Notes: generated from the sequence alone by a model not told the origin. 32,000 bases of DNA from Candidatus Saccharimonadota bacterium (GCA_016700375.1 CP065016.1:1-32000); one strand, 5' to 3'. Positions 2,814-31,592 are shown, counted from the stretch's first letter. A program made the numbers and translations.

Positions 2814-2916
2814 TGCCATGCAGAAAGTAGCAGCTTTACTCGACGCATTGTTGCAGAAACAAGTTCAGCATGACGCATTCTTAACTCATAACTCTTATAT
2901 CTTAACTCTCGTTTTT

Positions 2917-3837
2917 TCATGCGCCGTCTCCGTAGTATTCCAAAAATTCGTCTTCTAGGTTCAGCTGCTCGGTCGTCAGCGCTGTGATGCTGCAGGTGCT
3001 GAGCACTGCGAGTGCCTCGGCAATGGTTTTCTTTGGCTGCACTACCACCGTGTGACCCTCGTGCGAAATAAATTTGAGCGCCCGGTTGGCGCGGAGTTTA
3101 TCGGCATCTTTGGGGTGCGCCAGAACAACCCGAAACGTTGTAGTTGCCAGGTTTTCATCGTTTTTCACTGATTGCTCATGTATGAGCCGACCATGTTTGA
3201 TTATGCCGACGCGGTCGCACATCCGCTGGGCTTCAGCTAGGTTGTGGCTGCTGACAAATACGGCCGCTCCGCGTGCGCTGGCTTCGCGAATGGTCGCGTA
3301 AAACACCTCTTGCATAAGTGGGTCGAGACCGCTTGTCGGTTCGTCGAGTATGAGGACGTCGGGCTGGTGCATAAGCGCTTGAATGATGCCTATTTTTTGG
3401 CGGTTGCCTTTGCTGAGTTCGCCAATTGGCTTTTCTGGCTCGGCTTCAAACCGCTGAATAAGCTCGGCCAGATACTCCGTTTTTAACCGGAGCCTGTCCC
3501 CGGCTTGATCGGGGAATTGCAGTTTTCCCAGATACGAAAACATCTCATTGCCGGTTACTCGCGGCCATAGCGCAATTTCACCCGACAGGTACCCAACGTG
3601 TTTTTTAACCGCCACAGTGTCTTTCACTATATCCAAGCCCATTATGCTCGCCGTGCCACTGGTGGGTTGGATAAAATTCAGCAGCAGCCGAATGGTTGTG
3701 GATTTGCCCGCGCCATTTGCCCCGAGAAACCCGTACACTTCACCTGGACTAACCCGTAAGGTTAGGTTATCGAGCGCTGGGGATGTTGTGCCTTGATATA
3801 GCTTGGTCAACTCCTGAATGTCAATACTATCGCTCAT
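2917..3837 (-). CDS. ABC transporter ATP-binding protein
   Basis: Walker A GANGAGKST, signature LSKGNRQK, Walker B ILDEPTSGLD, and an H-loop SSHN. Confidence 0.9.
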   Translation of the reverse strand: MSDSIDIQELTKLYQGTTSPALDNLTLRVSPGEVYGFLGANGAGKSTTIRLLLNFIQPTSGTASIMGLDIVKDTVAVKKHVGYLSGEIALWPRVTGNEMFSYLGKLQFPDQAGDRLRLKTEYLAELIQRFEAEPEKPIGELSKGNRQKIGIIQALMHQPDVLILDEPTSGLDPLMQEVFYATIREASARGAAVFVSSHNLAEAQRMCDRVGIIKHGRLIHEQSVKNDENLATTTFRVVLAHPKDADKLRANRALKFISHEGHTVVVQPKKTIAEALAVLSTCSITALTTEQLNLEDEFLEYYGDGA

Positions 3838-3843
3838 TATGTT

Positions 3844-3853
3844 TAGTATACTA
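3844..3853. promoter_or_regulatory. Palindromic TAGTATACTA giving a TATACT -10 box in both directions
   Basis: Only 22 bp separate the divergent ATGs at 3837 (minus) and 3860 (plus). TATACT lies 7 nt upstream of each ATG. Neither side has a Shine-Dalgarno sequence. Confidence 0.5.
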
Positions 3854-3859
3854 CGTTCT

Positions 3860-4423
3860 ATGCGACAGATTATTTTGGCAAGTACCTCGCCACGAAGGAA
3901 GGAATTGCTTAACGCAATGGGCTGGGATTTTACGGTAGTGTCGAGTGAGTTTCAGGAATACCTTGATGAAACACGGCTAGTTGAAGAAATTGCTATGGAA
4001 CTTGGCCGGGGAAAAGCGCTCTCCGTTGCAGAACGCTTCCCAGACGCAATCGTCATTGGCAGCGATACCATTGTCACCGTGGGCGAAACGCAACTTGGCA
4101 AGGCTGCAGACATCAACGACGCACGTCGAATGTGGCGGCTCATCACAAGCGCGCCAAACAAGGTTACTTCGTCACTGGCGGTTATTTGTAAGAGCGAAAA
4201 CGTTGAGCATGTCACCTACGACAACGCATGGGTGTATTTAAAACCCTTTAATGAAGCGGCCGTGGAGGCGTATCTTGCCACCGGTGACTACACCGACAAA
4301 GCTGGCGCCTACGCCATTCAGCACATTGGTGACCTGCTCGACCATATCGAAGGTTCCGAAGACACCATTCTTGGCCTTCCGACAGCACTACTAAAAGACA
4401 TCTTTAACAAGAACTTTTTATAA
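3860..4423 (+). CDS. maf: Maf-like nucleoside triphosphate pyrophosphatase
   Basis: ILASTSPRRKELL, GSDTIV and DKAGAYAIQ motifs. Start placed at ATG 3860 (MRQIILAS). Confidence 0.85.
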   Translation: MRQIILASTSPRRKELLNAMGWDFTVVSSEFQEYLDETRLVEEIAMELGRGKALSVAERFPDAIVIGSDTIVTVGETQLGKAADINDARRMWRLITSAPNKVTSSLAVICKSENVEHVTYDNAWVYLKPFNEAAVEAYLATGDYTDKAGAYAIQHIGDLLDHIEGSEDTILGLPTALLKDIFNKNFL

Positions 4424-4473
4424 TTTTTCAAAAAGTAATAAAAGGCATATCCTTTTTCATTTGGGAAAATGTG

Positions 4474-5658
4474 CTATTTGAAAAAGTCGGTGCTGGCGAG
4501 CTCCGGTGGGAGGAAGCCGTCGGGGTGCTGGTAGCCAGCTTCCCATTTGGCGCTACGGCCATAACCGAGGTCTTTCATGAGGCTGGTTGGGGCGTTACGG
4601 AGGCCGAGCGGGACGGGCAGGTCGGGGTACTGTGTGGCGGCGGCTTTTGCTTTGCCCCACGCGTCGTAGCTTTCACGGCTTTTTGGTGACTTAGCCAGTA
4701 CCACGGCGCAGTGGCTGAGGTTAATTTCGGCTTCGGGTAGGCCGATTCGTTCAACTGCTAGGAATGTTGAGACGGCTAAATTGAGCGCGGCAGGTGCGGC
4801 TAAGCCAATATCTTCGCTGGCAAAGACCACCATCCGGCGGGCAATAAACTTTGGGTCTTCGCCTGCCTGAAGCATCCGCGCCATGTAGTAGAGCGCCGCT
4901 GTTGGGTCGCTGCCGCGCATACTCTTTATGAACGCACTAATGATGTTGTAGTGCTGTTCGCCCTTTTTGTCGTAGCCAGGTAATTTTGTCTGGGCGGCCG
5001 TTTCGACCAGTTCTGGCGTAATGGTTTTGCCGAGCGCAAGCCGCTGAGCAAGCTCTAGGTTGCCGAGCGCCACACGGGCATCACCGCCGCTCAAGTCGGC
5101 TAGTAACTCCAGCGATTTCTTGGGCAAAACTTTCGCGCTTAACTTCATTTGTTTCGCGCTTCTCTGTAAAATGGCCATAATTTCACTTCGTTTCAGTGGC
5201 TCTAGTACAAGTACGCGGGCACGGGAAAGCAGGGGGTTTATAACTTCAAAGCTCGGGTTTTCGGTGGTTGCGCCTATGAGCGTAATAGTTCCGGCCTCTA
5301 CGTGCGGCAAAAAAGCGTCTTGTTGCGCTTTGTTAAACCGGTGTATTTCGTCCACAAACAAGATTGTTTGCATGCCAAGCCGCTGGTTTTGCTCCGCGCG
5401 GTCGATAACTTTCACCACATCTGCCTTGCCACTCGTCACCGCGCTAATTTCTACAAACTCGGCACCCGTTTCGGTCGCAATAATCCGCGCGAGTGTGGTT
5501 TTACCCGTGCCGGGCGGTCCCCACAGGATGAGGCTGGTCGGTTCTTTGTTCTGTACAATCTGCCGGATGATTTTTTGTGCGCCCACTAAGTGAGTTTGCC
5601 CCACGACATCGTCGAGCTTACTCGGTCTCATCCTCTCCGCCAACGGCCTCGCATCCAT
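4474..5658 (-). CDS. rarA: Replication-associated recombination protein A (AAA+ ATPase)
   Basis: MRPSKLDDVVGQTHL, Walker A GPPGTGKTTLA, Walker B LFVDEIHRFNK, and a conserved MgsA C-terminal region (GDARVALN-like, YYMARML). Confidence 0.9.
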   Translation of the reverse strand: MDARPLAERMRPSKLDDVVGQTHLVGAQKIIRQIVQNKEPTSLILWGPPGTGKTTLARIIATETGAEFVEISAVTSGKADVVKVIDRAEQNQRLGMQTILFVDEIHRFNKAQQDAFLPHVEAGTITLIGATTENPSFEVINPLLSRARVLVLEPLKRSEIMAILQRSAKQMKLSAKVLPKKSLELLADLSGGDARVALGNLELAQRLALGKTITPELVETAAQTKLPGYDKKGEQHYNIISAFIKSMRGSDPTAALYYMARMLQAGEDPKFIARRMVVFASEDIGLAAPAALNLAVSTFLAVERIGLPEAEINLSHCAVVLAKSPKSRESYDAWGKAKAAATQYPDLPVPLGLRNAPTSLMKDLGYGRSAKWEAGYQHPDGFLPPELASTDFFK

Positions 5659-5741
5659 ATATATAAGTATACTTCTTTTCTGTGGCCATAGCGCTTAGTT
5701 CACAGTGTTAAGCCAATCTCTCCATCATTCCCCCTGCTCCT

Positions 5742-5768
5742 GTCATTCCCGCGCAGGCGGTAATCCAT
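5742..5768. repeat. GTCATTCCCGC-GCAG-GCGGTAATCCAT hairpin repeat (imperfect)
   Basis: It has the same GTCAT...ATCCAT frame as the other hairpin repeats, with one stem mismatch. Confidence 0.6.
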
Positions 5769-5786
5769 GTTTTTTGGTATTTTGTC

Positions 5787-6267
5787 ATGCTGAATTCATT
5801 TCAGCATCCATACGTCTCCCTGACGTCCGTGGGTCTATCTTGCTCTACAGTCTCACTAAATCTTAACTCACGCAAGGCGGCTCTTGGACTGCCATACCGA
5901 CCAACTTTGCTCAGTCAAAATAACACACAGGTTTCGCCCTACAGGGCGACCTACTTTTTCTGCCGAAGAAAAAGTAAGCAAAAAGTCTCGGCCACAGGCT
6001 TCACCTCTCGGTCAGCAGCTGTCAGTTCTACAACCGACATGAGAACTCGTCAGACATGTATTGCCACCGGCAATACATGTCTTCCGAACGCGATGTGTTT
6101 GAATAACACATCGCTACTTGGTCAAGCCGTAAGGGCTTGACTGGCATCAAACAACTCGTGCCGCCTGTCGGAAGTTGTAGAACCTGACAACAGCTGAGCC
6201 AGGAGGCTACGCATGGCCATTTCTAGTTGTATCGCTTCCGCGACGATTGCTTCGGCCGTTCCGGCCG
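5787..6267 (-). ncRNA. Candidate large structured RNA, copy A (unclassified; strand tentative)
   Basis: It aligns block by block with 17743-18116. Hairpins at 5951-5977, 6024-6047, 6054-6080, 6174-6191, 6231-6244 and 6253-6267 have positional counterparts in copy B that differ in sequence but remain paired. No ORF is conserved along the whole length. Confidence 0.45.
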
Positions 6268-6281
6268 CATGCCGATATATC

Positions 6282-6440: not shown

Positions 6441-7160
6441 TTACCACCAGTGGTTTGCTTGCCAGAATGCGTAGGCGGCTTCCCAGCTGCCGTAGCGGCG
6501 TGTCGCGTAGCCGTCGAAGTATGCATCTTGACAGGCATAGTCGGCACCGCAGGAAGTTCTAAGCACACCGTTGCAGTCCTGACCAAGGCCGTAGCAGCCT
6601 GTAGGGTTGGTAGCATTTGGGTTGTTGCCGCTTTCACGTGAGTATATGTAAGCTTTTGCAGCGTTGGCGCTAATGGGGTAGCTCGTAGCTGGTGCTGCCG
6701 ACCGGGGGGCTGCTGCGCGGTAGCTTGTTGTTACGGGCGTGGCAACCACAACGGGTTGAGGCAATGGCCGCTCGGCTAGGACTTCATCTGCCCTAGGCAC
6801 GCGAACTTGGTCGCCGGGATTAATGACGTTTGGATTTGCAATGGCCGTGTTGGCGAAAAACAGGCGCGTCCAGGTGGTGCCATGAGCTTCGGCAATCTTG
6901 CTGAGGCTATCACCCGGCTGTACCGTTACCATGACTGGCGCTGGAGCTGATGGTTCGGCGGAGGGAGCAGGCTTCACTTCATTTGCCTTTTTCTCCTCTG
7001 TTTGCTTCACTTCGTTTGCGTCGTCAGTCCTGGCCAGCATGACTGTGCTGACAAAATCTTTATCTTGTTGAAAGCCCAGCGTTTGAGCTGATGCATGTGG
7101 CATGGTGATACCACAGAGTACGGTCGCCAGTGCGACCGCTGTTCGTACGGTGTTACGCAT
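6441..7160 (-). CDS. Secreted LysM-domain protein with an Apf/transglycosylase-like C-terminal domain
   Basis: Signal-like N-terminus. LysM segment VTVQPGDSLSKIAEAHGTTWTRLFFAN..INPGDQVRVP. C-terminus YIYSRESGNNPNATNPTGCYGLGQ...RYGSWEAAYAFWQANHWW. AAGGAGG lies upstream. Confidence 0.75.
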   Translation of the reverse strand: MRNTVRTAVALATVLCGITMPHASAQTLGFQQDKDFVSTVMLARTDDANEVKQTEEKKANEVKPAPSAEPSAPAPVMVTVQPGDSLSKIAEAHGTTWTRLFFANTAIANPNVINPGDQVRVPRADEVLAERPLPQPVVVATPVTTSYRAAAPRSAAPATSYPISANAAKAYIYSRESGNNPNATNPTGCYGLGQDCNGVLRTSCGADYACQDAYFDGYATRRYGSWEAAYAFWQANHWW

Positions 7161-7508
7161 AAATACCCTCCTTAAGCGCAGTCCAAGTACAATCCCGGCG
7201 AATAGTATTGAGAGCCAGGGAGGACCGCTCGCGTCAAAAACTCCACCAAAAAGTTTTGGGCACGTGGCAGTAAGGCTAGTTCATAAGCATTTTGGAGTCA
7301 AGCAAAACGAGTGTTATTATGCAATATTTCCAGAGGCCAAAAACATGTTACTTTATTTACAACACAGTGTGATATTTATCACAACAAATTACCATGAATA
7401 AACACAAATAGCTAATATATTTTTAAATATTTTGAAGGTTTCTAAGAAACATGAAAACAAAGAGTAAACAGCAAAAGCGGTTTGTGGTATACTGTGGCTA
7501 CACAAGAG

Positions 7509-8858
7509 ATGATAGAATTTGTTTTGCTTTTTACCTCTCTGCTGCTAATACTCGCGTGCGGTGTCTTTGTCGCAGCGGAGTTTTCACTTATAGCGGTGAA
7601 CCGCACAACGGTAGAAAGGTTGGCCGCTAGAAGCGACGGAAGGGCTAAGGGAGTGCTTCGGGCACTAACCACGCTTTCGACACAGCTTTCGAGCGCGCAG
7701 GTGGGTATAACTATTACAAACCTCCTGATAGGGTTTTTGGCAGAGCCTGCCATATCGGAGCTGATTCGTCCATGGCTAGAAGCTCTGGGTATTTCAGGAA
7801 AGCTGGTCACAACACTTGCGGTGCTACTTGGTTTACTGCTTGCCACTGCACTCACCATGATATTTGGTGAGCTGGTACCCAAAAATCTCGCTATCGCAAA
7901 GCCTGTCGCAACTGCTAAGCGAGTGCAGGGGCCACTGCTGTTTTTTACCTCTGTTATGCAGTGGCCAATTCGTGTGCTGAATGGTAGTGCTAACGCGTTT
8001 TTGCGTAAAATCGGGATAGAGCCGCAGGAGGAACTGGCGTCTGCTCGCTCGGCCGACGAACTAATATCCCTTGTACGCCGTTCGGCCGAAAAAGGAACCA
8101 TTCCCCGCGAAACGGCCATTATGCTCGAGCGCTCGCTTAACTTTGGTGACCTCACGGCGCTTGATGTGATGACCCCACGAGTTCGTGTAAAGGCTCTGCC
8201 AAAAGACGCATATGTCAGTGATGTGTTTGAGCTTGCCAAGCACACAGGGCTATCCCGATTTCCGGTATACGGGCAGAGCCTCGATGATGTGGTTGGTTTT
8301 GTACACATAAAGCACGCGTTGGCGGTGGCGAGAGCAGAGCGCCGTAAGACCGCGCTCAGTACTATTATGCGGCCGCCCATTTTGGTGCCATCCACTATAG
8401 AGCTTGAGCCGTTACTCGAGAATCTGCGAGCAGGGGGATTCCAGATGGCGATTGTTATAGATGAGTTTGGTGGTATGGACGGCCTTGTGACCATAGAAGA
8501 TTTGCTCGAAGAAATTGTGGGAGAGGTGCACGATGAACATGACCGCATACGCTCCGATATCCGGCTTATGAGCGATGGAACATGGTTGCTTTCGGGGCTG
8601 CTGCGTCCTGACGAAGTCGGAGAAGAGCTGGGGATTTTTCTGCCCGAGGAAGAAGAAGTTGAGACCATTGGTGGGCTGATGCTGCATCATCTAGAGAAAA
8701 TCCCCGCGGTTGGCGAGTGGGCGGAACTGCGCTGTGTCGACCGAGAAGGCAACGAAATGATTGCGCTGCTCACAGTTGAACGTATGGACGGGCGACGGAT
8801 AGACCGTATACGGTTACTGCTCAGTACCCCTGGTGAAACAAGTGAGGGGGCGGTATGA
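7509..8858 (+). CDS. CNNM/DUF21 + CBS pair + CorC_HlyC domain protein (hemolysin-family, putative Mg/Co efflux)
   Basis: DUF21 N-terminus (AAEFSLIAV), CBS region, and a C-terminal IGGLMLHHLEKIPAVGE...RIDRIRL. Start placed at ATG 7509, downstream of TGGTATACT (7485-7493). Confidence 0.85.
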   Translation: MIEFVLLFTSLLLILACGVFVAAEFSLIAVNRTTVERLAARSDGRAKGVLRALTTLSTQLSSAQVGITITNLLIGFLAEPAISELIRPWLEALGISGKLVTTLAVLLGLLLATALTMIFGELVPKNLAIAKPVATAKRVQGPLLFFTSVMQWPIRVLNGSANAFLRKIGIEPQEELASARSADELISLVRRSAEKGTIPRETAIMLERSLNFGDLTALDVMTPRVRVKALPKDAYVSDVFELAKHTGLSRFPVYGQSLDDVVGFVHIKHALAVARAERRKTALSTIMRPPILVPSTIELEPLLENLRAGGFQMAIVIDEFGGMDGLVTIEDLLEEIVGEVHDEHDRIRSDIRLMSDGTWLLSGLLRPDEVGEELGIFLPEEEEVETIGGLMLHHLEKIPAVGEWAELRCVDREGNEMIALLTVERMDGRRIDRIRLLLSTPGETSEGAV

Positions 8859-9892
8859 GCGTAGAAATGGGGCTTTTTATTACCATCATGATGTTACTGG
8901 GCAATGCTTTTTTTGTGGGAGCAGAGTTTGCACTTGTTTCTGCCCGTCGGAGCAATATTGAGCTTGCAGCGTTGGCCGGTTCGCGTACCGCAAAAGTTAC
9001 GCTGCACGCCATGGAGCGTGTGTCGCTTATGCTTGCAGGTGCTCAGTTAGGCGTAACTGTTTGTAGCCTGGTGCTCGGTGCTGCCGGCGAACCGCTTATT
9101 GCGCATCTGCTAGATGAGCCTCTCCATGCTTTGGGAGTGTCGGCGGCATGGAATCACCCTATAGCATTTGCGGTTGCGCTATCGCTAATGGTGTATTTAC
9201 ACGTTGTTATTGGCGAGATGATACCGAAAAATATATCGCTTGCTACATCCACGAAAGCAGCACTCATTTTGGTTCCGCCCCTACACTTATTTGTGAAGAT
9301 GACTCGTCCGGTGGTGGTGACACTAAACGCCTTGGCAAATGCTATCGTGCGCGCAATGGGCATCCACCCAAGTGATGAAATCCGGAGCAGCTTTAGTCGT
9401 GACGAAGTGGCTGGGTTTGTCAAAGAATCTCACCGCGAAGGGCTGCTTAGCCGTGAGGAAGAGTCCCTGCTATCGAACACCCTTGATCTTGAAGACCATA
9501 GCGTGAAGCGGGTTATCATACCACTCAACCAGCTCATTGTTACTTCTGCGCATCCGACTCCAGCAGAAATAGAAAATCTCTGCGCTAGTACCGGTTTTTC
9601 ACGATTTCTGGTTCCGGGCAAAAAGGGCTCACTGCGCGGGTATTTGCACATAAAAGATGTGCTGCAGTTTGCAGACGAAAAAGCCCATGAACCGCTGGCT
9701 CCGAACCACATACGGCCACTCGGCATGATTCGCCCCGGCACAAGCTTGCGCAGCGCGCTGCTTAGTATGCAGCAGTCTGGGTCACACGTAGCACAGGTGG
9801 TCAACGGCCACGGGGTTGTAACGGGAGCGGCCATGCTCGAAGACGTGCTAGAGGAGCTCATCGGCACCATTCGCGACGAAACTAGGAAATAA
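8855..9892 (+). CDS. CNNM/DUF21 + CBS domain protein (paralog, no CorC_HlyC domain)
   Basis: GAEFALVSARR, IGEMIPKN and a CBS pair. Its ATG overlaps the upstream stop (ATGA at 8855-8858). Confidence 0.85.
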   Translation: MSVEMGLFITIMMLLGNAFFVGAEFALVSARRSNIELAALAGSRTAKVTLHAMERVSLMLAGAQLGVTVCSLVLGAAGEPLIAHLLDEPLHALGVSAAWNHPIAFAVALSLMVYLHVVIGEMIPKNISLATSTKAALILVPPLHLFVKMTRPVVVTLNALANAIVRAMGIHPSDEIRSSFSRDEVAGFVKESHREGLLSREEESLLSNTLDLEDHSVKRVIIPLNQLIVTSAHPTPAEIENLCASTGFSRFLVPGKKGSLRGYLHIKDVLQFADEKAHEPLAPNHIRPLGMIRPGTSLRSALLSMQQSGSHVAQVVNGHGVVTGAAMLEDVLEELIGTIRDETRK

Positions 9893-14449: not shown

Positions 14450-15385
14450 ATGTTCTGCATGGTACAGATTTACTACAGCCGCGCACGCGAAAGAGCACTG
14501 CAAAAACTCGACACGCCTCGTGCTGGGTCTTGGATTGCTGTGACGAGTCCGTCAGAAAAAGACCTCGACATGCTGAGTGAAACGTACGGATTGGATCGGG
14601 ACACGCTTGAGGACGCCATAGATATATATGAAGCGCCGCGTATTGAGACATACCAAGGGGCTGTCTACCTCTTTACGCGCTATTGCCACCCCGAGGGAGC
14701 AGAAATTGCAACTGAGCCACTGCTGATTGTTTATACCAATGACTATATTTTCACCGTTTCACGTATAGAAACGACACTGCTCGACCGGTTGGTGCATGAC
14801 CAACTAGAGTTTGTGACGACACAAAAGACAAAAACCGTGCTTTGGATGCTCGACGAAATAAACAAATCGTATGAAAAGCACCTTACGAAAGTGGCGCGTC
14901 GGGTGTTGCAACTACGGGCCGAACTTCGACAGTCGCGTTTGAGCGCAAAGGAATTCGTGCGTATTATTGAGCTTGAAGAAGACCTCAACGAGTTTCTTTC
15001 GGCCCTACAGCCCCAGTCGCTTCTATTCAATTCGCTGCTGGGGGGCAAGTATCTGCGGCTGTACGAAGATGACCGCGATATGATAGAAGACATAGAACGC
15101 AGCACTGGCGAGCTGATTGGTCAGGTACAGGGGAGACTGCGCACGCTCGTGAACATGCGCCAGGCCTACGATGCGATTGCTACGACAAACCTGAACGCGA
15201 CGTTTAAGCGACTTACCTCTATTGCCATATTTCTAACCATTCCGACTATAGTAGGTGGACTGTGGGGGATGAATGTGGCAGTGCCGTTTGCCGACAACCA
15301 GTATGCGTTTGCGTTTGTGCTTGCGATAGTGCTCGGCCTGTCGGCACTGGCCGTGCTGCTATTTCGCAAAAACAAATGGCTGTAG
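14450..15385 (+). CDS. corA: CorA-family Mg2+/Co2+ transporter
   Basis: C-terminal two TM helices with the GMN motif (GGLWGMNVAVPF). The start could instead be ATG 14459. Confidence 0.85.
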   Translation: MFCMVQIYYSRARERALQKLDTPRAGSWIAVTSPSEKDLDMLSETYGLDRDTLEDAIDIYEAPRIETYQGAVYLFTRYCHPEGAEIATEPLLIVYTNDYIFTVSRIETTLLDRLVHDQLEFVTTQKTKTVLWMLDEINKSYEKHLTKVARRVLQLRAELRQSRLSAKEFVRIIELEEDLNEFLSALQPQSLLFNSLLGGKYLRLYEDDRDMIEDIERSTGELIGQVQGRLRTLVNMRQAYDAIATTNLNATFKRLTSIAIFLTIPTIVGGLWGMNVAVPFADNQYAFAFVLAIVLGLSALAVLLFRKNKWL

Positions 15386-15431
15386 TTCTCGGCTAGTGCA
15401 CGCGGAAGTCGTTTGCTATACTAGACCGAGC

Positions 15432-16511
15432 ATGAAACATCTTTTTCACCCGCAGTCTGTTTTTCGTATATTTGGATTTTCTATATTTGCTACGCTGGCA
15501 ACACTCATTGGCGTAACCATCGGCCTTGGCTGGAGTGCGTTGTTTGTCACCATCATCCTTATGATAGTTGAGCTTACCTTCAGCTTCGACAACGCTATCA
15601 TCAATGCCAAGGTACTTGAGCGTATGAGTAATTTCTGGCAGCTCATCTTCCTAACCGTCGGTATATTTATTGCCATATTTGGTATGCGCGTAGTGTTCCC
15701 TATACTCATTGTGTCCATTACCGCAGACCTTGGCTGGAAGACAGTGCTTGACCTAGCCCTCAATAACCCCAAAGAGTATGCACATCATCTTGAAGAGGCG
15801 CACCCAACTATATCGGCCTTTGGTGGAGCGTTCCTGCTTATGCTTGCGTTTCATTTCTTCTTTAGTGATGAGCGGCACACCATGTGGATTAAGCATATCG
15901 AAAAGCACCTTAAAAAACTGTCTCACTGGGCGTGGCCGTCTGTAGTTACAACCATAATGCTATTTTCAGTTGCCTCGCTACCCATTAACTCTCATGCCAA
16001 GACGACATTTATGGCTGGTGGGTTCGGTACGCTCACATACCTGCTTATACATGGTGCTATTCGCTGGATAGAAAAATATCAGGGCGTTGATGCCAAAAAA
16101 TCGGCCACAAAACAGGTTGGTCTTGCAGCGTTTATGAGCTTTATATATCTTGAGATTCTCGACGCGAGCTTTAGCTTTGATGGCGTTATTGGAGCATTTG
16201 CCATTACAAGCAATGTGGTGCTTATTGCGGCCGGACTTGGCATAGGCGCTATATGGGTACGTTCTATGACGGTGTTTATGGTACGACGCGGCACGCTTAA
16301 GAACTTTATTTATCTTGAGCACGGCGCACACTATACGGTGTTTGTACTGGCGCTTATTATGCTTTTTAGCGCGCTGTTTCATATACCGGAACTCATACCG
16401 GGGCTGGCCGGCATAGGCATTATAGGTGCTTCCATAGCTGCTTCTATACGGGTACGCAAAAAACTAGAAACGGGTGAGGCGGTCAACAAACCGGCACGAG
16501 TTCGCGGATAG
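15432..16511 (+). CDS. DUF475 integral membrane protein (TerC-like superfamily)
   Basis: Duplicated FSFDNAI / SFSFDGVIGAF motifs in a polytopic protein. ATG 15432 lies 9 nt after TGCTATACT. Confidence 0.7.
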   Translation: MKHLFHPQSVFRIFGFSIFATLATLIGVTIGLGWSALFVTIILMIVELTFSFDNAIINAKVLERMSNFWQLIFLTVGIFIAIFGMRVVFPILIVSITADLGWKTVLDLALNNPKEYAHHLEEAHPTISAFGGAFLLMLAFHFFFSDERHTMWIKHIEKHLKKLSHWAWPSVVTTIMLFSVASLPINSHAKTTFMAGGFGTLTYLLIHGAIRWIEKYQGVDAKKSATKQVGLAAFMSFIYLEILDASFSFDGVIGAFAITSNVVLIAAGLGIGAIWVRSMTVFMVRRGTLKNFIYLEHGAHYTVFVLALIMLFSALFHIPELIPGLAGIGIIGASIAASIRVRKKLETGEAVNKPARVRG

Positions 16512-16516
16512 CTCCC

Positions 16517-17749
16517 ATGAGTGTGAAGCGTCCATTCTACTTCGAAGTTAGGCAGCGTCTTCATGGCACTTTGGCTCGGAGCGGCATTATCCATACGCCG
16601 CATGGAGACATAAAGACCCCAGCGTTTGTAGTTGTTGGTACCAAGGCCAGTGTAAAGTCCATGACGCCAGAACAGGTGCGCGGTACTGGCGCCCAAGCAA
16701 TGCTAGCAAACGCCTATCATTTGTACCTACAACCCGGCCCGGAGCTGATTGAGCAAGCCGGCGGGCTGGCAAAGTTTACGCACTGGGACGGTCCCACATT
16801 CACCGATAGCGGCGGGTTTCAAGTACTATCACTTGGTAGTGGTTTCAAAAAAACCCTTAGCATGGAAGTTGAGGGTGTTTCGGCCGATGACGTAATTGCG
16901 CCGCGTAAAGAACGACAGGCGTGGGTAGATGATGACGGCGTGAACTTTAAGTCATACCTCGACGGTTCTATGCACCGTTTTACACCCGAACATTCTATGC
17001 AAATACAGCACGGCATAGGGGCGGATATGTGCTTTGCGTTTGACGAACTAACGTCACTAATGGACACGCGTGAGTATCAGGAAGAATCTATGCGCACACG
17101 TACCCAACCATGGGCAGCACGGAGCTTGAAAGAAATGCAGCGCCTTCGAAAGTTACACCCAGACCGTCCATATCAGGCAGTATTTGGTGTGTTGCAGGGG
17201 GCAAACTACGAAGATTTACGGCGTGAAACGGCGCAGTGGATGGCCGAGCGCGAGTTTGACGGCTATGGCATAGGTGGCGCAATTGAAAAACAGCGTCTGG
17301 GTGATATTGTGCAGTGGTGCAACGAAATTTTGCCCGAAGACCGGCCAAAACACATGCTCGGCATAAGCGAACCAGACGATATGTTTGCGGCGGTGGAGCA
17401 CGGCATAGACACGTTTGACTGCGTGTCGCCCACGCGCGTTGGACGTAACGGCGCGTTTTATACCCAAGAGGGTCGCAAGAACATTCGCGGCGCCAAATAT
17501 CAGCGCGATTTCACCCCGTTGCTAGAGGGCTGCCTCTGTTACCCCTGCCAGAATTTCACCCGGGCGTATGTGCAGCATCTGTTTCGAGCCAAAGAACTAC
17601 TGGCAAATACACTCATGTCTATACACAACGAATATTTTATTGTTGGGTTAGTCGACCAGATGCGTGCCAGCATAGAGGGCGGCACGTTTTACGAGTTTCG
17701 TGACGCTTGGCTCGCCCGGTACTACCACCCACACCCTCCGTCATCCTGA
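16517..17749 (+). CDS. tgt: tRNA-guanine transglycosylase (queuine tRNA-ribosyltransferase)
   Basis: TPHGDIKTPAFVVVGT, DSGGFQV, GYGIGG, and the zinc site CLCYPC...H. Confidence 0.9.
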   Translation: MSVKRPFYFEVRQRLHGTLARSGIIHTPHGDIKTPAFVVVGTKASVKSMTPEQVRGTGAQAMLANAYHLYLQPGPELIEQAGGLAKFTHWDGPTFTDSGGFQVLSLGSGFKKTLSMEVEGVSADDVIAPRKERQAWVDDDGVNFKSYLDGSMHRFTPEHSMQIQHGIGADMCFAFDELTSLMDTREYQEESMRTRTQPWAARSLKEMQRLRKLHPDRPYQAVFGVLQGANYEDLRRETAQWMAEREFDGYGIGGAIEKQRLGDIVQWCNEILPEDRPKHMLGISEPDDMFAAVEHGIDTFDCVSPTRVGRNGAFYTQEGRKNIRGAKYQRDFTPLLEGCLCYPCQNFTRAYVQHLFRAKELLANTLMSIHNEYFIVGLVDQMRASIEGGTFYEFRDAWLARYYHPHPPSS

Positions 17750-18116
17750 ACTCGTTTCAGGATCCATGCACTTTCAATACCCTCTGTGTCCACTATGTCT
17801 TATACTTATAGCCTCGCTAAACCTTAACTCATGCATGGCAGTTCTCGGCCTGCCAGCCGACTTCCTCTTTTGCCGTAAAAGAGGAAGCGAGAAACCTCGG
17901 CCAAAGCTCCCGTTCTTGGTCAGCTGTTGCTCGTTTTGACAACTGACGCAACAACTCGTCAGTGTACTATTGCCACCGGCAATAGTACACTTCCTCAAAC
18001 AAGTCGCGCCACCTGTCGGAAGTTGTCAAACACGACAACACCTGAGCCAGGACCTTCCGCATGGCCAGTACAATTTATGTCGCTCACGCGACGACTTTAT
18101 AGAGGCCTGCGGCCGC
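17743..18116 (-). ncRNA. Candidate large structured RNA, copy B (unclassified; strand tentative)
   Basis: It fills the gap between convergent tgt and yhhQ. Hairpins at 17743-17763, 17837-17854, 17861-17887, 17923-17955, 17962-17990, 18022-18039, 18079-18092 and 18104-18114 are collinear with those of copy A. Confidence 0.45.
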
Positions 18117-18184
18117 TTTTGTTGGGTGTTGATTATTGATAGTTTGTTGATAACTCGGTTGTTGAACGTTGGTTGTTGCGAACG

Positions 18185-18871
18185 CTAATCGTCGAGGCTA
18201 ACGCTGAGGGGGGTGAAGTTAGTCTTTTTGTCGTAGTGGTCTTCGTGTTCACGGCTTTTTAGCCAGGCTATTACACGGTAGGTTACGGGGAGCATTAGCG
18301 TTTCTACGGTTACCTTGAACACAATTCCCACCAGAATGTAGTTGACCATCTGGCTGCTGGTAATAAGTCCGTAAAATGCCACCATACAGAAAATGGTTGT
18401 GTCTATAGCTTCACCCAGTAGCGTCGATGCCACAAGGCGTTGCCAGAGTTTTTTGCCACCACTACGAACTTTCATTTTTGCTAAAACGAATGAATTTACA
18501 AATTCGCCCACCAGGTACGCGACCAGACTGGCGGCCACTATACGGGGCACAAACCCAAAGACCGTGTTGAACTCGGCTACATTTGGCGCGCCTGCAACGG
18601 AGGGTAGGGCTTGTACGGCCGTTAAGACGGCTATCATAAGGACTAGCCAGAAAAAACTAACCCATATTGCGCGGCGGGTGTGTTTGTAGCCGTACACTTC
18701 GGTCATAACATCACCCAATATGTAGGCGAGTGGGAATAGTAGTGCGCCACCGTCGGCAATAATTGGTCCTACGGCAATCAGCTTCATAGCGCCGAGGTTG
18801 GAAATAATGAGTGTTGCCACGCTCGCGGCGACTGCGAGGTCGTAGTACCGGTAATTTTTCGTTTTGGGCAT
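18185..18871 (-). CDS. yhhQ: Queuosine-precursor transporter (YhhQ/DUF165, VUT family)
   Basis: YRYYDL...ISNL..K, PLAYILGDVMTEVYGY, and a polytopic profile. GAAGGAG lies upstream. Confidence 0.8.
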   Translation of the reverse strand: MPKTKNYRYYDLAVAASVATLIISNLGAMKLIAVGPIIADGGALLFPLAYILGDVMTEVYGYKHTRRAIWVSFFWLVLMIAVLTAVQALPSVAGAPNVAEFNTVFGFVPRIVAASLVAYLVGEFVNSFVLAKMKVRSGGKKLWQRLVASTLLGEAIDTTIFCMVAFYGLITSSQMVNYILVGIVFKVTVETLMLPVTYRVIAWLKSREHEDHYDKKTNFTPLSVSLDD

Positions 18872-23295: not shown

Positions 23296-23709
23296 TTACG
23301 CTTGGCAGCTCTCGCAGGTGCCGGTGAGTTCTATTTGGTGGGTGGTAAGGGTGAAATTGCGGCGTTTCGCCAGTGCTTGCAGGCGCTTCTCGAGTGCGGG
23401 GTCTTCGGGGAGTGCAATGCTGGCACCGCATGAGCTGCAGGTGGCGTGGTGGTGGTGTTCGTGAAAGGCTTCGCCGAGTTCCAGACGGTATTTCCACCCA
23501 TTTGGTATACGTATGATGATGCCTAGCCTTTCAAACAACTCAGTCGTGCGGTATACGCTAGCGCGGTCAACGCCCGTGCAGGCTGCTACTAGCTCGGCCA
23601 TGGTCAGACTTTTGTGGTGCTGCAACCCCTTGAACACCGCCTGACGTGGCTTCGTCAGACTGACACCGGCCTGCTTTAGCGATTTTTCAAATATTGCCTG
23701 ACTACTCAT
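23296..23709 (-). CDS. Fur-family metalloregulator (Zur-like by context)
   Basis: Winged-helix N-terminus, then HEHHHHATCSSCG and CESC metal-site motifs. Confidence 0.85.
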   Translation of the reverse strand: MSSQAIFEKSLKQAGVSLTKPRQAVFKGLQHHKSLTMAELVAACTGVDRASVYRTTELFERLGIIIRIPNGWKYRLELGEAFHEHHHHATCSSCGASIALPEDPALEKRLQALAKRRNFTLTTHQIELTGTCESCQA

Positions 23710-23737
23710 GTTGCAATGGTATCATAAATTGCGACAT
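23708..23737. promoter_or_regulatory. Candidate Fur-family operator: ATGTTGCAAT-N10-ATTGCGACAT
   Basis: 9/10 inverted repeat overlapping the regulator's start codon. The adjacent 12-bp palindrome TTTTTGCAAAAA (23737-23748) repeats the TTGCAA half-site. Confidence 0.35.
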
Positions 23738-23776
23738 TTTTGCAAAAAATTATGTGTTTATGATGTACTAATTTGT

Positions 23777-24538
23777 ATGAAGCAGGTATCACCAAACCAA
23801 CTCACTGATGCATTTAGCGCCTTTAGCGATGCGGCATCGCCGTACGGTGGCCTCGTGCAAGCAGAGGTACCTCGTCCGTCATTTCAGGAGTTAGTGCTAT
23901 GGGCGATTCGTGAAAGGGTGGCAATAGAGCCTGATGGCTATATAAAAATAAGACCCCGCGCCAAATTGCCAGGATTTGCCGGCCTAAGGGCGATAGTACT
24001 TATCCCCAGGCGTAATCAACAGCCTAATAGAGTAGCGGGCATAGTTCTCGAGGATGAAGAAAGAATAGGCGTCCTTGGGGGCCATGAGGTGTTCTCGCCG
24101 TTAGTGCAATCGCAACTCGATACCCTCTACCTAAACAATCGGCGCTCTGTGCTTGAACACCCAGGCGGTCAGCCGCGAGCAGGCTATGGGGGCCATGCTG
24201 TAGTGGGGGCATCTGCCCTGGCATTGCGCGGGAACCCACATCAGGCACTACATGACTTCACACCCAAAACATTTGGAGCCGAGCTTACCCGGCAGGGGTT
24301 GCAGGATATTCATGTAGGTCGCAACCAAGTCATCCCGCTAAGACAAGGAGCATTTACTCTCAGTCAGGTAGGGCTAGAAGTAGCTGGCCATTACCAGCCT
24401 CACACCTCCGACATGCTTGGCAGTGGTCTAACCGGTGAGGCTGCCAATGTCGCCTGGACGGCCGCCGCTGCCATATCAAACCCTGAGACCCATGGCAGAC
24501 TGAACTTTGCACGTAATTTAGCAGCAATGACGATGTAA
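23777..24538 (+). CDS. Hypothetical protein (253 aa)
   Basis: Intact ORF divergent from the Fur-family gene. Start placed at ATG 23777. No recognisable motif. Confidence 0.5.
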   Translation: MKQVSPNQLTDAFSAFSDAASPYGGLVQAEVPRPSFQELVLWAIRERVAIEPDGYIKIRPRAKLPGFAGLRAIVLIPRRNQQPNRVAGIVLEDEERIGVLGGHEVFSPLVQSQLDTLYLNNRRSVLEHPGGQPRAGYGGHAVVGASALALRGNPHQALHDFTPKTFGAELTRQGLQDIHVGRNQVIPLRQGAFTLSQVGLEVAGHYQPHTSDMLGSGLTGEAANVAWTAAAAISNPETHGRLNFARNLAAMTM

Positions 24539-24541
24539 GCT

Positions 24542-25003
24542 ATGCAAACTGAGCTGTATCAACCAGACACTTTTTCTGACACGTTGCCGGACGCACCGAT
24601 TGCAGAGCAGGTCAATGATTGGGACGCATTCTTTGCGGGTGCAGTTGCATTGTCGGAAGGAGAGGTCGTGGCACAACTGGGTGCAACGTTTGACGACTTG
24701 GCCGCGCGTGTTGCAGAAGGACCTTCCGATGAAGAAGCAGTTGCCGCCGTACGCTCATTGCTGGTAGAGGTTAAAGCCCGTGGCTACGTTGAGCAGGCGA
24801 TGCAGATGGCGATGACGCTCGGGGCTATGGCCTGTACTCACAACCACATGCAGGGGCTGGCGAACGAAGTTGGCAGTATGTTTGACGACGCATTTTCATC
24901 GCATGGGAAAGATGATGGGCACAATCACGACCGCGAAAATGATTCACATGACGCAAAAACCTGCGCCGACTGCAAAGCGGGCCGGGCGTGTCGCAAGAAG
25001 TAG
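24542..25003 (+). CDS. Hypothetical acidic protein with a His/Cys-rich C-terminus (153 aa)
   Basis: CTHNH and a C-terminal HGKDDGHNHDRENDSHDAKTCADCKAGRAC. It starts 3 nt after the upstream stop. Confidence 0.55.
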   Translation: MQTELYQPDTFSDTLPDAPIAEQVNDWDAFFAGAVALSEGEVVAQLGATFDDLAARVAEGPSDEEAVAAVRSLLVEVKARGYVEQAMQMAMTLGAMACTHNHMQGLANEVGSMFDDAFSSHGKDDGHNHDRENDSHDAKTCADCKAGRACRKK

Positions 25004-25083
25004 CTGTTTTGCGACAGATTTGCAGAGAGCGGACGGAAACGATTAAATGATACAAAGTAAATATACAGGGAGTAAGAGCAAGT

Positions 25084-25944
25084 ATGGCTACATATGGACA
25101 CGTAATATTTTTTTCGTTGGTAGGCGGACTGTTTTCGCTCATAGGCGGGGCGTTGCTGCTCAGCCGTGAAAAAACGGCGCTTGCACTGGCCAAGTACGCG
25201 ACGCCGTTTGCGGCCGGAGCGCTTGTTGCCGCAGTATTTATGGATTTGCTGCTCGATGGGCTTGAAGAAGCTCATGCGAAAACGCTGTTGCTATCTACAG
25301 TCATTGGCGTGGTGCTGTTCTATCTGATGGAACGGTTTATTCACTGGTTTCATCACCATCATCGCGCAGATGAAGGGAAGTTTGTCTCAGAGCACCATGA
25401 TAGTACGTTGCCGCTTATTATTGCAGGCGATACAATTCACAATGCCTTGGACGGCGTGGCTATAGCGGCTTCGTTTCTTATTAGCGTGCCCACGGGCATC
25501 GTCACTACTATTGCCGTGGCAGCACATGAAATCCCGCAAGAAATTGGTGATTTTGGGCTCATGCTTCACAAAGGCTTGTCGCGTAAAAAAGCACTACTCG
25601 TAAATGCGCTCAGCGCATTGGCTACAACAATTATGGCAATCCTCACGTTTGCAGTTGGAAGTGCGGAAAAACTCCCTATGGGTGTGCTCATTGGATTGAG
25701 CGCAGGGTTTCTGCTGTACATAGCCATGAGCGACATCATCCCTGAGCTACACAAACACGATAAAGGCCGCAAATTTGTTGATTGGCAGCCGCTTATGCTC
25801 ATACTCGGTATAGTTACGGTGATATTGGCCGTGCAAATCGCGCACCAGTACATAGATGCTGGACACGAGCACGAGCACACATCGGAACATGCGGCGGTCG
25901 AGTCACATCACGACGCTGACCATGAGCATGCGGCTCACGAGTAA
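25084..25944 (+). CDS. zupT: ZIP-family metal (zinc) transporter
   Basis: HNALDGVAIAASF and AHEIPQEIGDFGLML motifs. His-rich loop and tail (HWFHHHHR; HEHEHTSEH...HHDADHEH). Confidence 0.85.
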   Translation: MATYGHVIFFSLVGGLFSLIGGALLLSREKTALALAKYATPFAAGALVAAVFMDLLLDGLEEAHAKTLLLSTVIGVVLFYLMERFIHWFHHHHRADEGKFVSEHHDSTLPLIIAGDTIHNALDGVAIAASFLISVPTGIVTTIAVAAHEIPQEIGDFGLMLHKGLSRKKALLVNALSALATTIMAILTFAVGSAEKLPMGVLIGLSAGFLLYIAMSDIIPELHKHDKGRKFVDWQPLMLILGIVTVILAVQIAHQYIDAGHEHEHTSEHAAVESHHDADHEHAAHE

Positions 25945-30782: not shown

Positions 30783-31592
30783 TCATAGGCCGCTCGTACT
30801 GGTAAAAGTACCACATAGTCGCTCGAGCGGCGTCGCCTTGTCAATGCCTTTGTGTGGGCGTACACAGTTGTAGTAATTCACAAACCTGGTAAGGGCTTTG
30901 GCTCGCTCCTCACGACTGTTAAATACCTCGGCGTTATGCCAGCTCTCCATTAGTGTTCGGATGGCTCGTTCGGCTTTGCCATTCGTCTGCGGACACTTCA
31001 CTTTGGTGAACTTCTGGGTGATGCCAGCCTCGCCACAGGCTTTCATGAAAGCATGTTCACCGTAACGGCCTTTGTACTCGGTGCCATTGTCGGTTAAGAT
31101 TCGTTCAATACCATAGGGGCATTGAGCCAGTACAGTACTGAGGAAATCCGCGCTACTGAACATGCTCTTGTCGGGGTAGATACCAACGTACAGCTCTCTT
31201 GAGTAGTCATCAATAGCCACAAACAGATATTCATGGCCGTCCAGCTTCGTTTCGCCCGTAAGTAGTGGTAGACGTTTAGTATCCATATGCAACATCTCGC
31301 CTGGATAGTCTTTCTCGTAACGTTTGGCAGTCCGGGCTAGTTTATCTTGGATTGATCGCTCAATTTTGCCCAGCCGCTTTAAGCCGTACTCCAGGCATTG
31401 GTAGCGTTTGTTAGTACTGACGTGCAGGCTGTAGTCATCCCGCCGAGCCCGAGTGAGGATCTTTTGTATAGTGGGGTAGGACACCCCATATTTGGCAATG
31501 AGATCTTTCTTACGTAAGTTGAGGACAAAATAATCCTCTGCCAATGCTTTACGTTGAAACGGCATGAGCCGTGTTCGTTTATGTACTACCAT
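30783..31592 (-). CDS. DDE transposase (rve integrase core), IS481-like
   Basis: N-terminal HTH (YGVSYPTIQKILTRAR). The catalytic residues are probably among HMDTK, AIDDYSREL, LTDNGTEY and QTNGKAERAI. Confidence 0.85.
   Translation of the reverse strand: MVVHKRTRLMPFQRKALAEDYFVLNLRKKDLIAKYGVSYPTIQKILTRARRDDYSLHVSTNKRYQCLEYGLKRLGKIERSIQDKLARTAKRYEKDYPGEMLHMDTKRLPLLTGETKLDGHEYLFVAIDDYSRELYVGIYPDKSMFSSADFLSTVLAQCPYGIERILTDNGTEYKGRYGEHAFMKACGEAGITQKFTKVKCPQTNGKAERAIRTLMESWHNAEVFNSREERAKALTRFVNYYNCVRPHKGIDKATPLERLCGTFTSTSGL

Follow-up and report, generated by a model that had tools for sequence, protein, structure and literature searches.

A previously undescribed family of large structured RNAs represented twice in a 32-kb stretch of a Candidatus Saccharimonadota genome

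The minus strand of the DNA analysed here (a stretch of 32,000 nucleotides from Candidatus Saccharimonadota bacterium, GCA_016700375.1 CP065016.1:1-32000, referred to below as the window) carries one structured element twice, in diverged form, at positions 6268-5784 (copy A) and 18116-17740 (copy B); the element is a member of a previously undescribed RNA family. The two copies are probably paralogous genes for a new class of large, trans-acting, tertiary-folded ncRNA, which would serve as a scaffold or as an RNP component. The initial annotation had proposed a block-by-block alignment of the two segments on the minus strand, and direct comparison of the copies bears this out, with all six of the shared blocks that it listed being present in both A and B in unchanged order. 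The copies are 75% identical in their core and, in the comparison of A with B alone, 16 of the 102 predicted pairs are altered on both sides yet kept. A joint motif consisting of TCCTGGCTCAG-N20-TTCCGACAGG is found 2 times in the window versus 0.00 expected, and a nhmmer profile and a covariance model (CM) each retrieve exactly two copies from it, viz. A and B. Relative to shuffled sequences, copy B folds with z = -5.8 on the minus strand and z = -7.0 on the plus strand. Copy A is located between the terminator of a LysM-domain gene (6441-7160) and rarA (4474-5658), and copy B between the converging 3' ends of yhhQ (18185-18871, Vut_1) and tgt (16517-17749), where the 3' end of the copy B RNA overlaps the last tgt codons on the opposite strand (ORF end 17749). 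The other genes in the window are those of an ordinary chromosome (ABC transporter, Maf, two CNNM/CorC, BipA, CorA, TerC, NhaP, Fur, ZIP, RmuC, inositol-1-phosphate synthase, LysR and BacA), and a single rve-type integrase gene is present at 30783-31592. The parts of the two copies are listed below, where designations beginning with L refer to loci in other genomes and metagenomes.

5784-6268, minus strand: copy A, long form of about 485 nt, from P1 to the terminal hairpin P12 plus GAC (CM match to the core 6002-6207, 145 bits; nhmmer match 5944-6269, E = 1e-72)
6253-6267, minus strand: A, P1, 5'-terminal GC hairpin CGGCCG-GAA-CGGCCG, the 5' edge of the conserved unit (from the onset of similarity between loci)
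6231-6244, minus strand: A, P2, hairpin GUCGC-GGAA-GCGAU with a GNNA loop (closing pair in the family G-C in 8, A-U in 6 and G-U in 4)
5990-6218, minus strand: A, long irregular arm, closed by GGCCA (6214-6218) with UGGCC (5990-5994) (helices H2-H7 88-97% paired, with compensatory changes)
6194-6204 with 6004-6015, minus strand: A, pairing within the arm of UCCUGGCUCAG with CUGACCGAGAGG (same basis as the arm, helices H2-H7)
6164-6173, minus strand: A, conserved 10-nt bulge UUCCGACAGG (same letters in most copies, partly forced by the search patterns)
6086-6146, minus strand: A, module of 61 nt with two hairpins, which is optional and follows UUGUUUGA (carried by A, L006 and L008; not in the ortholog L019)
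6054-6080, minus strand: A, P6, apical hairpin with variable lower stem and conserved tip AUUGCC-GGU-GGCAAU (11 of 15 pairs changed on both sides)
5949-5979, minus strand: A, P9, hairpin with U-rich/A-rich stem and YGGY loop, then GUCG (at least 8 different stems in the family)
5924-5943, minus strand: A, P10, hairpin UGUAGG-GCGAAA-CCUGUG, then a U-rich run (conserved CGARA loop; three G-U pairs in A)
5934-5948, minus strand: A, alternative hairpin CGCCC-UGUA-GGGCG, mutually exclusive with P10
5787-5900, minus strand: A, 3' extension domain (P12 and flanks kept in 6 long-form copies including the divergent L017), with a second P10-like hairpin (5875-5894), UGAGUUAAG (5862-5870), UAGUGAGAC, ACGUAUGG and P12 (5787-5807)
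17740-18116, minus strand: copy B, long form of about 377 nt (CM match 17910-18055, 157 bits; nhmmer match 17850-18116, E = 1e-77)
18117-18184, minus strand: B, CA-rich leader, 7% G, between the yhhQ stop codon and P1 (common to L029, L014/L018 and L024)
18102-18116, minus strand: B, P1, GCGGCC-GCA-GGCCUC (from sequence and onset of similarity)
18079-18092, minus strand: B, P2, GUCGC-GUGA-GCGAC (from sequence and covariation in the family)
17899-18066, minus strand: B, long arm, GGCCA (18062-18066) with UGGCC (17899-17903) (from covariation), containing UCCUGGCUCAG (18042-18052), the bulge (18012-18021) and P6 (17962-17990)
17836-17888, minus strand: B, P9 (17861-17887), GUCG and P10, UGGCAG-GCCGAGAA-CUGCCA (17836-17855) (from folding and stems in the family)
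17743-17831, minus strand: B, 3' domain with UGAGUUAAG (17823-17831), UAGCGAGGC and the terminal hairpin P12 (17743-17763) (from A/B pairing and comparison of P12 in the family)

The first structural model was a two-copy consensus of 62 pairs mapped on an alignment of 20 sequences. The mapping was done by hand, followed by a covariance-model refit, because RNAalifold on the raw 20-sequence MAFFT alignment gave only part of the structure. In this model 92.8% of the cells are paired and 32 pairs are changed on both sides, whereas in a control in which the 3' partners were slid by 1-3 columns the corresponding values are 29-47% and 9-15 pairs. The covariance model is of the central 146 positions, and after realignment of 23 sequences its 50-pair core is 92.4% paired with 27 of the 50 pairs compensatory, in comparison to 29-49% and 5-13 compensatory pairs when the partners are slid. 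The long-range helix H7 is 97% paired in the 23 sequences, and 5 of its 8 pairs are compensatory. Of 500 shuffles, none reached the observed values for percent paired, number of compensatory pairs or covariation score; this shuffle control is anticonservative for related sequences, but the margin is still large and the helices vary independently. The compensatory changes are thus in excess of both the shifted-register and the shuffled controls. Among the paired cells there are 55 G-U/U-G versus 18 A-C/C-A combinations, which indicates that the minus strand, as was originally proposed, is the sense strand of the RNA. Further, one pair is G-U in 14 and A-U in 9 of the 23 sequences, and as such a pair would read as an A-C mismatch on the other strand, it argues against a purely DNA-level palindrome. 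Based on these comparisons, covariation shows an RNA-level structure under purifying selection. The claim made from A and B that a large RNA is being selected for its structure is in this manner extended to 23 sequences.

Three of the stems which the initial annotation had matched between the two copies, viz. P2 (6231-6244 and 18079-18092), P6 (6054-6080 and 17962-17990) and P9 (5951-5977 and 17861-17887), are found at precisely these positions and they exhibit compensatory differences. However, the fourth of its stems, in which AGUUCU/AGAACU (6024-6047) of copy A was equated with GUUGUUGC/GCAACAGC (17923-17955) of copy B, joins non-homologous columns; in the 23 sequences the two versions are 77% and 71% paired, which is no better than shuffles, and the strands involved pair instead over a long range in H7. 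The three extra hairpins described for copy A are real, those at 6090-6114 and 6121-6141 making up the 61-nt module and the one at 5934-5949 being the alternative to P10. Their description as expansion segments is correct insofar as the module is optional and missing in the ortholog L019, but it is incomplete, because the module occupies two different sites in different copies: a homolog of it is present at a second site in L034 (1150-1211), and both sites are directly after UUUGA.

The predicted RNA would be a discrete minus-strand transcript that begins at or just before P1, which in the family is a GC-rich hairpin of the form GCGGCC-N3-4-GGCCGC, followed by P2 with its GNNA loop and a linker with AACUAG that leads into the long arm. 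This arm, about 230 nt in length, is closed by GGCCA/UGGCC and contains the pairing of UCCUGGCUCAG with CUGACCRAGA, an invariant ACAAC/GUUGU helix, the 10-nt bulge UUCCGACAGG (for which the variants UUCCGAAAGG, UUCCGUCAGG and UACCGUCAGG occur in the family), H7, and a purine-rich internal loop, UUGUUUGA ... GAGUU, with the potential for tandem G-A pairs. The conserved bulges and internal loops (UUCCGACAGG, UUGUUUGA/GAGUU and CCAAGA) are located between freely covarying helices. In P6 the tip AUUGCC-GGU-GGCAAU is fixed across the family, but the lower 5-7 pairs differ in almost every subfamily. After the arm would come P9, in outline an 11-13-bp hairpin with a U4/A4 top, a YGGY loop and a conserved GUCG following it, whose stem has at least 8 different versions in the family, most of them perfectly paired and about 9-13 bp long, and P10, a 6-bp hairpin with a CGARA loop and at least 7 different stems. 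In the long forms, A and B included, a 3' domain is added that contains UGAGUUAAG, UAGUGAGAC and, at its end, a hairpin in the frame ACGUAUGGAU[stem]AUGAC, so that the predicted RNA would end in a hairpin plus GAC; this frame is kept even in L017, and P12 is conserved with compensation in the 6 long-form copies. The size ranges from about 255-300 nt for the minimal form to 375-485 nt for A and B. The shortest natural version is L042 (255 nt), where the whole apical part (the bulge, H7 and P6) is replaced by two other hairpins and the element ends with P10 followed by AUUUCUUAUUU. The P8'/P9 region occurs as variants I and II, which are combined with different cores, and L020 is a truncated relic.

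The wider search for homologs that had been proposed for the two segments led to 23 additional full or partial copies beyond A and B, all of them from Saccharimonadia MAGs or metagenomes. A scan of 185,579 species-representative genomes with a two-block pattern gave 15 matches, of which 7 are true homologs: 5 in MAGs named Candidatus Saccharimonadales or Saccharibacteria and 2 on separate contigs of a MAG whose title is just 'bacterium', with a pair of copies in each of two MAGs. The remaining 8, in which the spacing differs, fall in coding sequences from unrelated bacteria and were rejected. An independent pattern identified 13 more true copies in metagenomes from activated sludge, digesters and rhizosphere, and look-ups of YhhQ homologs yielded five more. 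For L017, the most divergent copy, the best named relatives of the neighbouring proteins are from Saccharibacteria or Saccharimonadia. BLAST against phages and plasmids and three pattern scans of IMG/VR gave only chance coding matches. As far as sampled, the distribution shows a family that appears to be restricted to Saccharimonadia (Saccharibacteria). Because all of the homologs were retrieved by window-derived patterns or by synteny, the conservation of the 'invariant' blocks is overstated, an effect already visible from the bulge variants UUCCGAAAGG, UUCCGUCAGG and UACCGUCAGG and from the L042 form, and the taxonomic range is perhaps understated.

None of the 4227 models of Rfam 15 matches the window at the gathering threshold, and at E<=10 there are only chance hairpin matches (mir-355, aspC, snoR30, RyhB and similar); in 12 homologous loci at E<=1 the only matches are two tRNAs elsewhere in L008, and ARAGORN finds no tRNA or tmRNA in the window. 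The view that the segments belong to no known family has thus held up. In the literature, including a 50-genome survey of ncRNAs and a paper on rRNA insertions in CPR, no description of the element was found, nor was any RNA of this kind found described for Saccharibacteria or the wider CPR. Several specific motif readings were rejected. A hammerhead reading of CUGACGAG is out, with only GAG conserved among the homologs; a CsrA sponge based upon the CAGGAUG tail motif is out, since what is conserved is AUGAC and not GGA; an HDV-like 5' ribozyme is out, P1 being a simple local hairpin; and mimicry of 16S helix 1 (GGCUC with GAGUU) is out by the compensatory pattern in L029. When the complement of the bulge was searched in the window as a seed target, the only exact matches were the copies themselves. 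Scans for sigma-70 promoters and for terminators were uninformative, as was a search for a -10 box at constant spacing from P1; they revealed no conserved promoter at such a spacing and no terminator on the minus strand.

The presence or absence of the element at given chromosomal sites was compared in relatives whose YhhQ is 61-89% identical and in which the gene order of the window is conserved. The pattern at each site was as follows.

Site yhhQ-tgt: occupied in the window, L004, L010, L034, L035 and L042; empty in L036 (CP064993.1, 120-bp spacer), L037 (genes overlap), L040 and L041
Site lysM-rarA: occupied in the window and L019; empty in L035 (234-bp spacer)
Site ino1-rmuC: occupied in L034 and L035; empty in the window, L036 and L037
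Site after the FMN reductase gene of L017: occupied in L017; empty in L164

The identity of the cores does not track the locus. L006 and L013 are both 95% identical to copy A; L006 is situated within the rpsP-KH-trmD operon, antisense to it, between the gene of the KH protein and trmD, and L013 has a Clp ATPase gene on one side and nusA on the other. Likewise, L034c2 shares 97% identity with L016/L021, whose neighbour is a pilus ATPase gene, and the value for L010 and L014, which come from a single MAG, is 96%. However, the cores of L034 and L035 at their shared locus are only 81% alike, with flanks that are 95-97% identical. Subfamilies are 58-75% identical and retain the structure, and one to three copies are seen per MAG or locus. 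Each locus has flanking genes of its own (LysM/RarA, YhhQ/TGT, Ino1/RmuC and further unrelated ones), and three copies, e.g. L006, are antisense to both neighbours; from these observations the element is shown to be independent, so far as the sequences indicate, of any particular neighbouring gene. In most comparisons between loci similarity sets in at P1 +/-2 nt, and in one at 6 nt upstream; the exception is two pairs sharing the CA-rich leader (the leader group comprises B, L029, L014/L018 and L024), for which it begins 70-83 nt upstream of P1. As this leader is found in copies at other loci, that of B may belong to the element. Contig breaks within the element are frequent, and flanks with tandem heptamer repeats are seen. 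An RNA with a housekeeping role is expected to be single, universal and syntenic, but here there are two copies within 12 kb and none in the syntenic stretches of L036, L037, L040 and L041. The site comparisons show a family that behaves as an accessory gene and not as a housekeeping RNA: close relatives have gained, lost and replaced copies, and modules have been recombined between them.

Of the known RNAs, those that resemble the element most in character are the orphan 'ornate' large bacterial ncRNAs OLE, ROOL, GOLLD and the raiA-motif RNAs, which are Rfam families (PMC12286853, PMC10861870). Similar to them, the element is several hundred nt long, with many covarying helices and conserved unpaired blocks between the helices, and it has no single downstream gene, a narrow taxonomic range and no assigned biochemical function; with ROOL and GOLLD it also shares the property of being a patchy accessory gene. 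However, it matches none of the four in sequence or structure, it belongs to CPR, at least two diverged paralogs are present per genome, and its apical and 3' domains are swapped; further, unlike ROOL and GOLLD it has no phage or prophage context, and unlike OLE no oapA-like partner gene. The conserved loops (GNNA, YGGY and CGARA) and bulges would form tertiary contacts and/or a surface for binding a partner, and if so, the anatomy of the RNA suggests that it would act in trans as a compact scaffold or RNP component, as is thought for the orphan ornate RNAs, and not in the regulation of a neighbouring gene. Classical trans-acting RNAs (RNase P, 6S, OLE) are not usually multi-copy, patchy and locus-hopping, and such a distribution would suit a selfish element as well.

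The main rival of the trans-acting reading, which we consider unlikely, is that the family is a non-autonomous mobile element, whose folded RNA would either be the intermediate in its mobility or serve as cofactor to a protein that has its gene elsewhere, as in ORF-less group II introns, stand-alone IS200/IS605 omega-RNAs or a SINE-like retro-copy; selection on structure would in that case serve the propagation of the element itself. Much of the distribution described above is in keeping with this: the occupied and empty sites in genomes of like gene order, the 95-97% identical cores at different loci in different MAGs (A with L006 and L013; L034c2 with L016), the diverged cores of L034 and L035 between near-identical flanks, the onset of homology near P1 with no promoter travelling along (the copies with the CA-rich leader excepted), the relic L020, the 61-nt module at two sites each just after UUUGA, and the frequent contig breaks and heptamer repeats. 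However, no mobilising gene adjoins any copy, the only transposases beside one being those of an IS982-like element that landed in the 3' domain of L004, and the copy number is low (1-3 per genome or MAG). Terminal inverted repeats and target duplications were not noticed in an informal look by eye, and the idea of decayed transposon ends, raised in the initial annotation as an alternative, accordingly lacks its usual marks. The retention of structure in subfamilies that are only 58-75% identical points to long-term purifying selection.

The specific carriers that could be invoked for a mobile element differ from the family in several regards. The HEARO or IscB-IsrB omega-RNAs and stand-alone IS200/IS605 copies are likewise structured RNAs of 200-400 nt, multi-copy and patchy, sometimes with no adjacent ORF, and carriers of the IS200/IS605 type also have no inverted repeats or target duplications. 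However, there is no HEARO or retron-type match, the genes beside about 20 loci are housekeeping genes with no IscB, IsrB or TnpB among them, and no variable guide abutting a constant scaffold was found; the 5' flanks consist of leaders of low complexity that are poor in G or C, and are not target-derived, P1 and P12 are unrelated, and the only other variable single strand is the P1-P2 linker of 6-11 nt. With ORF-less class C group II introns the element shares a structured RNA of a few hundred nt that would also be mobile DNA, the placement of copy A just after a terminator hairpin and an NUGCG start. Group II introns have the 5' consensus GUGYG and a 3' AY boundary, and the unit here starts with (A/G/C)UGCGGCC and has variable 3' ends. 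It is, however, intergenic, exon continuity is not evident, no intron-encoded protein or domain 5/6 signature is seen, there is no match to Intron_gpII or group-II-D1D4, and no 34-nt D5-like hairpin is present in the A and B sequences. A more specific proposal of the mobile kind, which is still more doubtful, is a gene-less, RNA-centred CPR element: a promoter-less self-folding RNA, possibly a ribozyme, that would start exactly at the 5' hairpin, be copied between intergenic sites via an RNA intermediate or a trans enzyme, and host a UUUGA-targeting 61-nt mini-insertion.

A role in cis, in which the element would be a 3'-UTR structure, terminator, insulator or regulator of flanking genes (e.g. 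an mRNA stabiliser, or control of read-through at P10), is improbable. Most copies are co-oriented with the upstream gene and are located 45-110 nt downstream of it, the G- or C-depleted unstructured leaders would insulate their folding from the mRNA, and P10 in L042, L013, L008, L026 and copy A is a GC hairpin with a U-rich run after it, which would suit an intrinsic terminator, with a hairpin competing with P10 in A, L022 and L026. However, copy B has no U-tract or other terminator-like 3' end. In addition, the neighbours are unrelated between loci, three loci are antisense to both of them, and about 50 conserved unpaired positions in 250-480 nt are far beyond the needs of a terminator or stabiliser.

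It is very improbable that the family is a diverged version of a known RNA (RNase P, 6S, SRP, tmRNA, a group I/II intron or an IscB/IsrB omega-RNA) that was missed by Rfam. CPR sequences are often divergent, the NUGCG start recalls the group II consensus, and the long irregular hairpin loosely recalls 6S RNA, in which a long imperfect hairpin likewise has conserved internal loops and the Bacillus paralogs 6S-1 and 6S-2 differ in sequence with a common fold. However, the element lacks the large central bubble of 6S RNA and has extra 5' and 3' hairpins, and its presence varies between close relatives. The Rfam searches at E<=10 for the window and E<=1 for the 12 homologs include no match to 6S or any of the others, ARAGORN reports no tmRNA, and no domain-5-like hairpin, exon context or adjacent IscB, IsrB or RT gene is seen. 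Further, the element is missing from the syntenic 20 kb of close relatives whose assemblies are large or complete (L036, L037 and L041), which is not the behaviour of an essential RNA.

The least probable reading gives the element no function as RNA and makes it a DNA-level repeat of the MITE, REP or BOX type or the remnant of a protein-coding gene: REP/BIME, BOX, Correia and MITE-like repeats such as the hairpin motif MRSC-65-2 (PMC11109978) are also modular, hairpin-rich, intergenic, multi-copy and variably present, both strands of the element fold well and several copies have long stop-free frames, but the element is far larger and multi-branched, with a low copy number, conserved unpaired blocks and a strand-specific excess of G-U, no duplication or inverted repeats are visible between occupied and empty sites (an analysis limited by the divergence of the flanks), indels of 61 and 51 nt break frames that are not shared between the copies, gene callers call nothing there, and the stop-free antisense translation as a query against a set of 5.8 billion proteins gave no protein match.

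Large and intricately folded bacterial RNAs to which no function has so far been assigned are rare, and the past classes (RNase P, group I/II introns, OLE, GOLLD/ROOL, and HEARO, which led to omega-RNA) each ended in new biochemistry. The family described here offers an experiment-ready system, in that nature provides a minimal variant of 255 nt (L042), swapped domains, and sites with and without the element in genomes that are otherwise collinear. Saccharibacteria are tiny symbiotic bacteria for which natural transformability is reported, and the CPR genomes, which are roughly 1 Mb in size, have little room for non-essential DNA. The maintenance in such genomes of several diverged copies of an element, each of up to about 500 nt, implies a real pay-off, either for the cell or for the element.

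Some copies of the structured RNA carry a module of 61-62 nt, which forms two hairpins in the layout GCCAGUCAAGCC..GGCUUGAC..GUAGCGAUGUG..CACAUCGCG and is found only within copies of this RNA. Its occurrences are listed below together with the disrupted copies, where L-numbers denote homologous loci from other Saccharimonadia genomes and metagenomes.

Window 6086-6146, L006 4335-4395, L008 4858-4918 and L034 1150-1211: two-hairpin module, 61-62 nt
L004 2790-4790: transposase gene and transposase-like ORF within the near-identical ortholog of copy B
L020 6300-6410: truncated RNA copy

The module sits at two distinct sites. It is located 3' of UUGUUUGA in copy A (the copy at the lysM-rarA site), L006 and L008, and in the second copy within L034 it lies between the GAC and AAC of the conserved helix of the long irregular arm. 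UUUGA immediately precedes the module at both sites, and L019, the ortholog of copy A, is without it. This module could represent either a mini mobile insertion or a peripheral domain that can be repositioned. In L004 the distal 3' domain is replaced by two ORFs, one (2856-3755) encoding an IS982-like transposase and the other (3818-4789) also transposase-like, with the break point directly after ..GGACACACAGAGGGTA. The truncated copy in L020 has nothing beyond the 5' strand of the arm, ending at UUGUUUGA, and it is flanked by a LexA/UmuD-like ORF and a gene for a Y-family polymerase (UmuC/DinB-like). The window itself contains a sole mobile-element gene in its 32 kb, which is 12 kb away from copy B (the copy at the yhhQ-tgt site):

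30783-31592, at the window edge: rve-family integrase ORF (IS3/IS481-like, 269 aa)

The 3' end of copy B, the 3' tails and the P10 hairpin (3' hairpin with a CGARA loop) involve these features:

17740-17763: terminal hairpin of copy B, on the opposite strand to tgt (16517-17749), which it overlaps
Window 5690-5790, L010 1-110 (minus strand), L034 10920-11110, L035 10960-11070, L016 990-1040 and L018 1880-2000: 3'-tail hairpin repeats
Window 5924-5948, with equivalents in L022 and L026: mutually exclusive hairpins at P10

At its terminal hairpin, copy B runs into the last codons of tgt. As the TGT ORF is 410 aa long in the window versus 405-409 aa in most relatives, among them the ones whose yhhQ-tgt site carries no RNA (L037, with 447 aa, differs), the insertion of copy B may have altered the C-terminus of TGT. 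The 3' tails contain 1-4 copies of a short hairpin with closing A-U/U-A pairs followed by GAC (..GAU-stem-AUGAC(A/G)G..), which in L034 are arranged as a tandem unit of ~65 nt, and between copy A and rarA weaker AAUGAC and AAUGAU motifs are seen. The stem covaries (AUCCU/AGGAU, AUUCU/AGAAU, AUCUC/GAGAU), and this hairpin may serve as a repeated protein-binding or processing signal. At P10, CGCCC-N4-6-GGGCG and the family-wide CGARA-loop stem followed by a U-rich run exclude each other, and their competition could act as a switch for read-through into the 3' domain.

The 5' flanks were examined at the following positions:

Window 18117-18184
L035 10690-10796
L034 10690-10736
L011 1-60
L016 600-680

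In nearly all RNA copies this flank is depleted either in G (7-15%) or else in C (1-12%), and several flanks contain tandem heptamer repeats, viz. GAGACAT x8 in L035 and the GTAGG type in L011. The leader at the yhhQ locus is CA-rich in the window, whereas it is GA-rich in L010, L034 and L035. No -10 box conserved at a fixed distance from P1 (the 5'-terminal GC hairpin) was found in the 5' flanks of the RNA copies.

Separately, the window is rich in genes for metal-ion homeostasis (two CNNM/CorC, CorA, TerC/DUF475, Fur and ZIP), and Rfam detected no riboswitch for Mg or Mn upstream of either corA or terC:

7482-9892, 14450-16511 and 23296-25944: metal-ion homeostasis genes

Lastly, UCCUGGCUCAG (window 6194-6204 and 18042-18052) coincides exactly with the universal 27F primer site of 16S rRNA over the last 11 nt of that site, and ~45 nt downstream of UCCUGGCUCAG there is a GAGUUGUUUGA block similar to the GAGUUUGA that precedes these 11 nt in 16S. 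Broader rRNA similarity around UCCUGGCUCAG was not found (no Rfam SSU match). A pairing like that of 16S helix 1 was also considered at this position, and it is contradicted by compensatory changes in L029. The likeness to the 27F site is probably a coincidence. Primers of the 27F type could anneal at UCCUGGCUCAG in these RNA loci.
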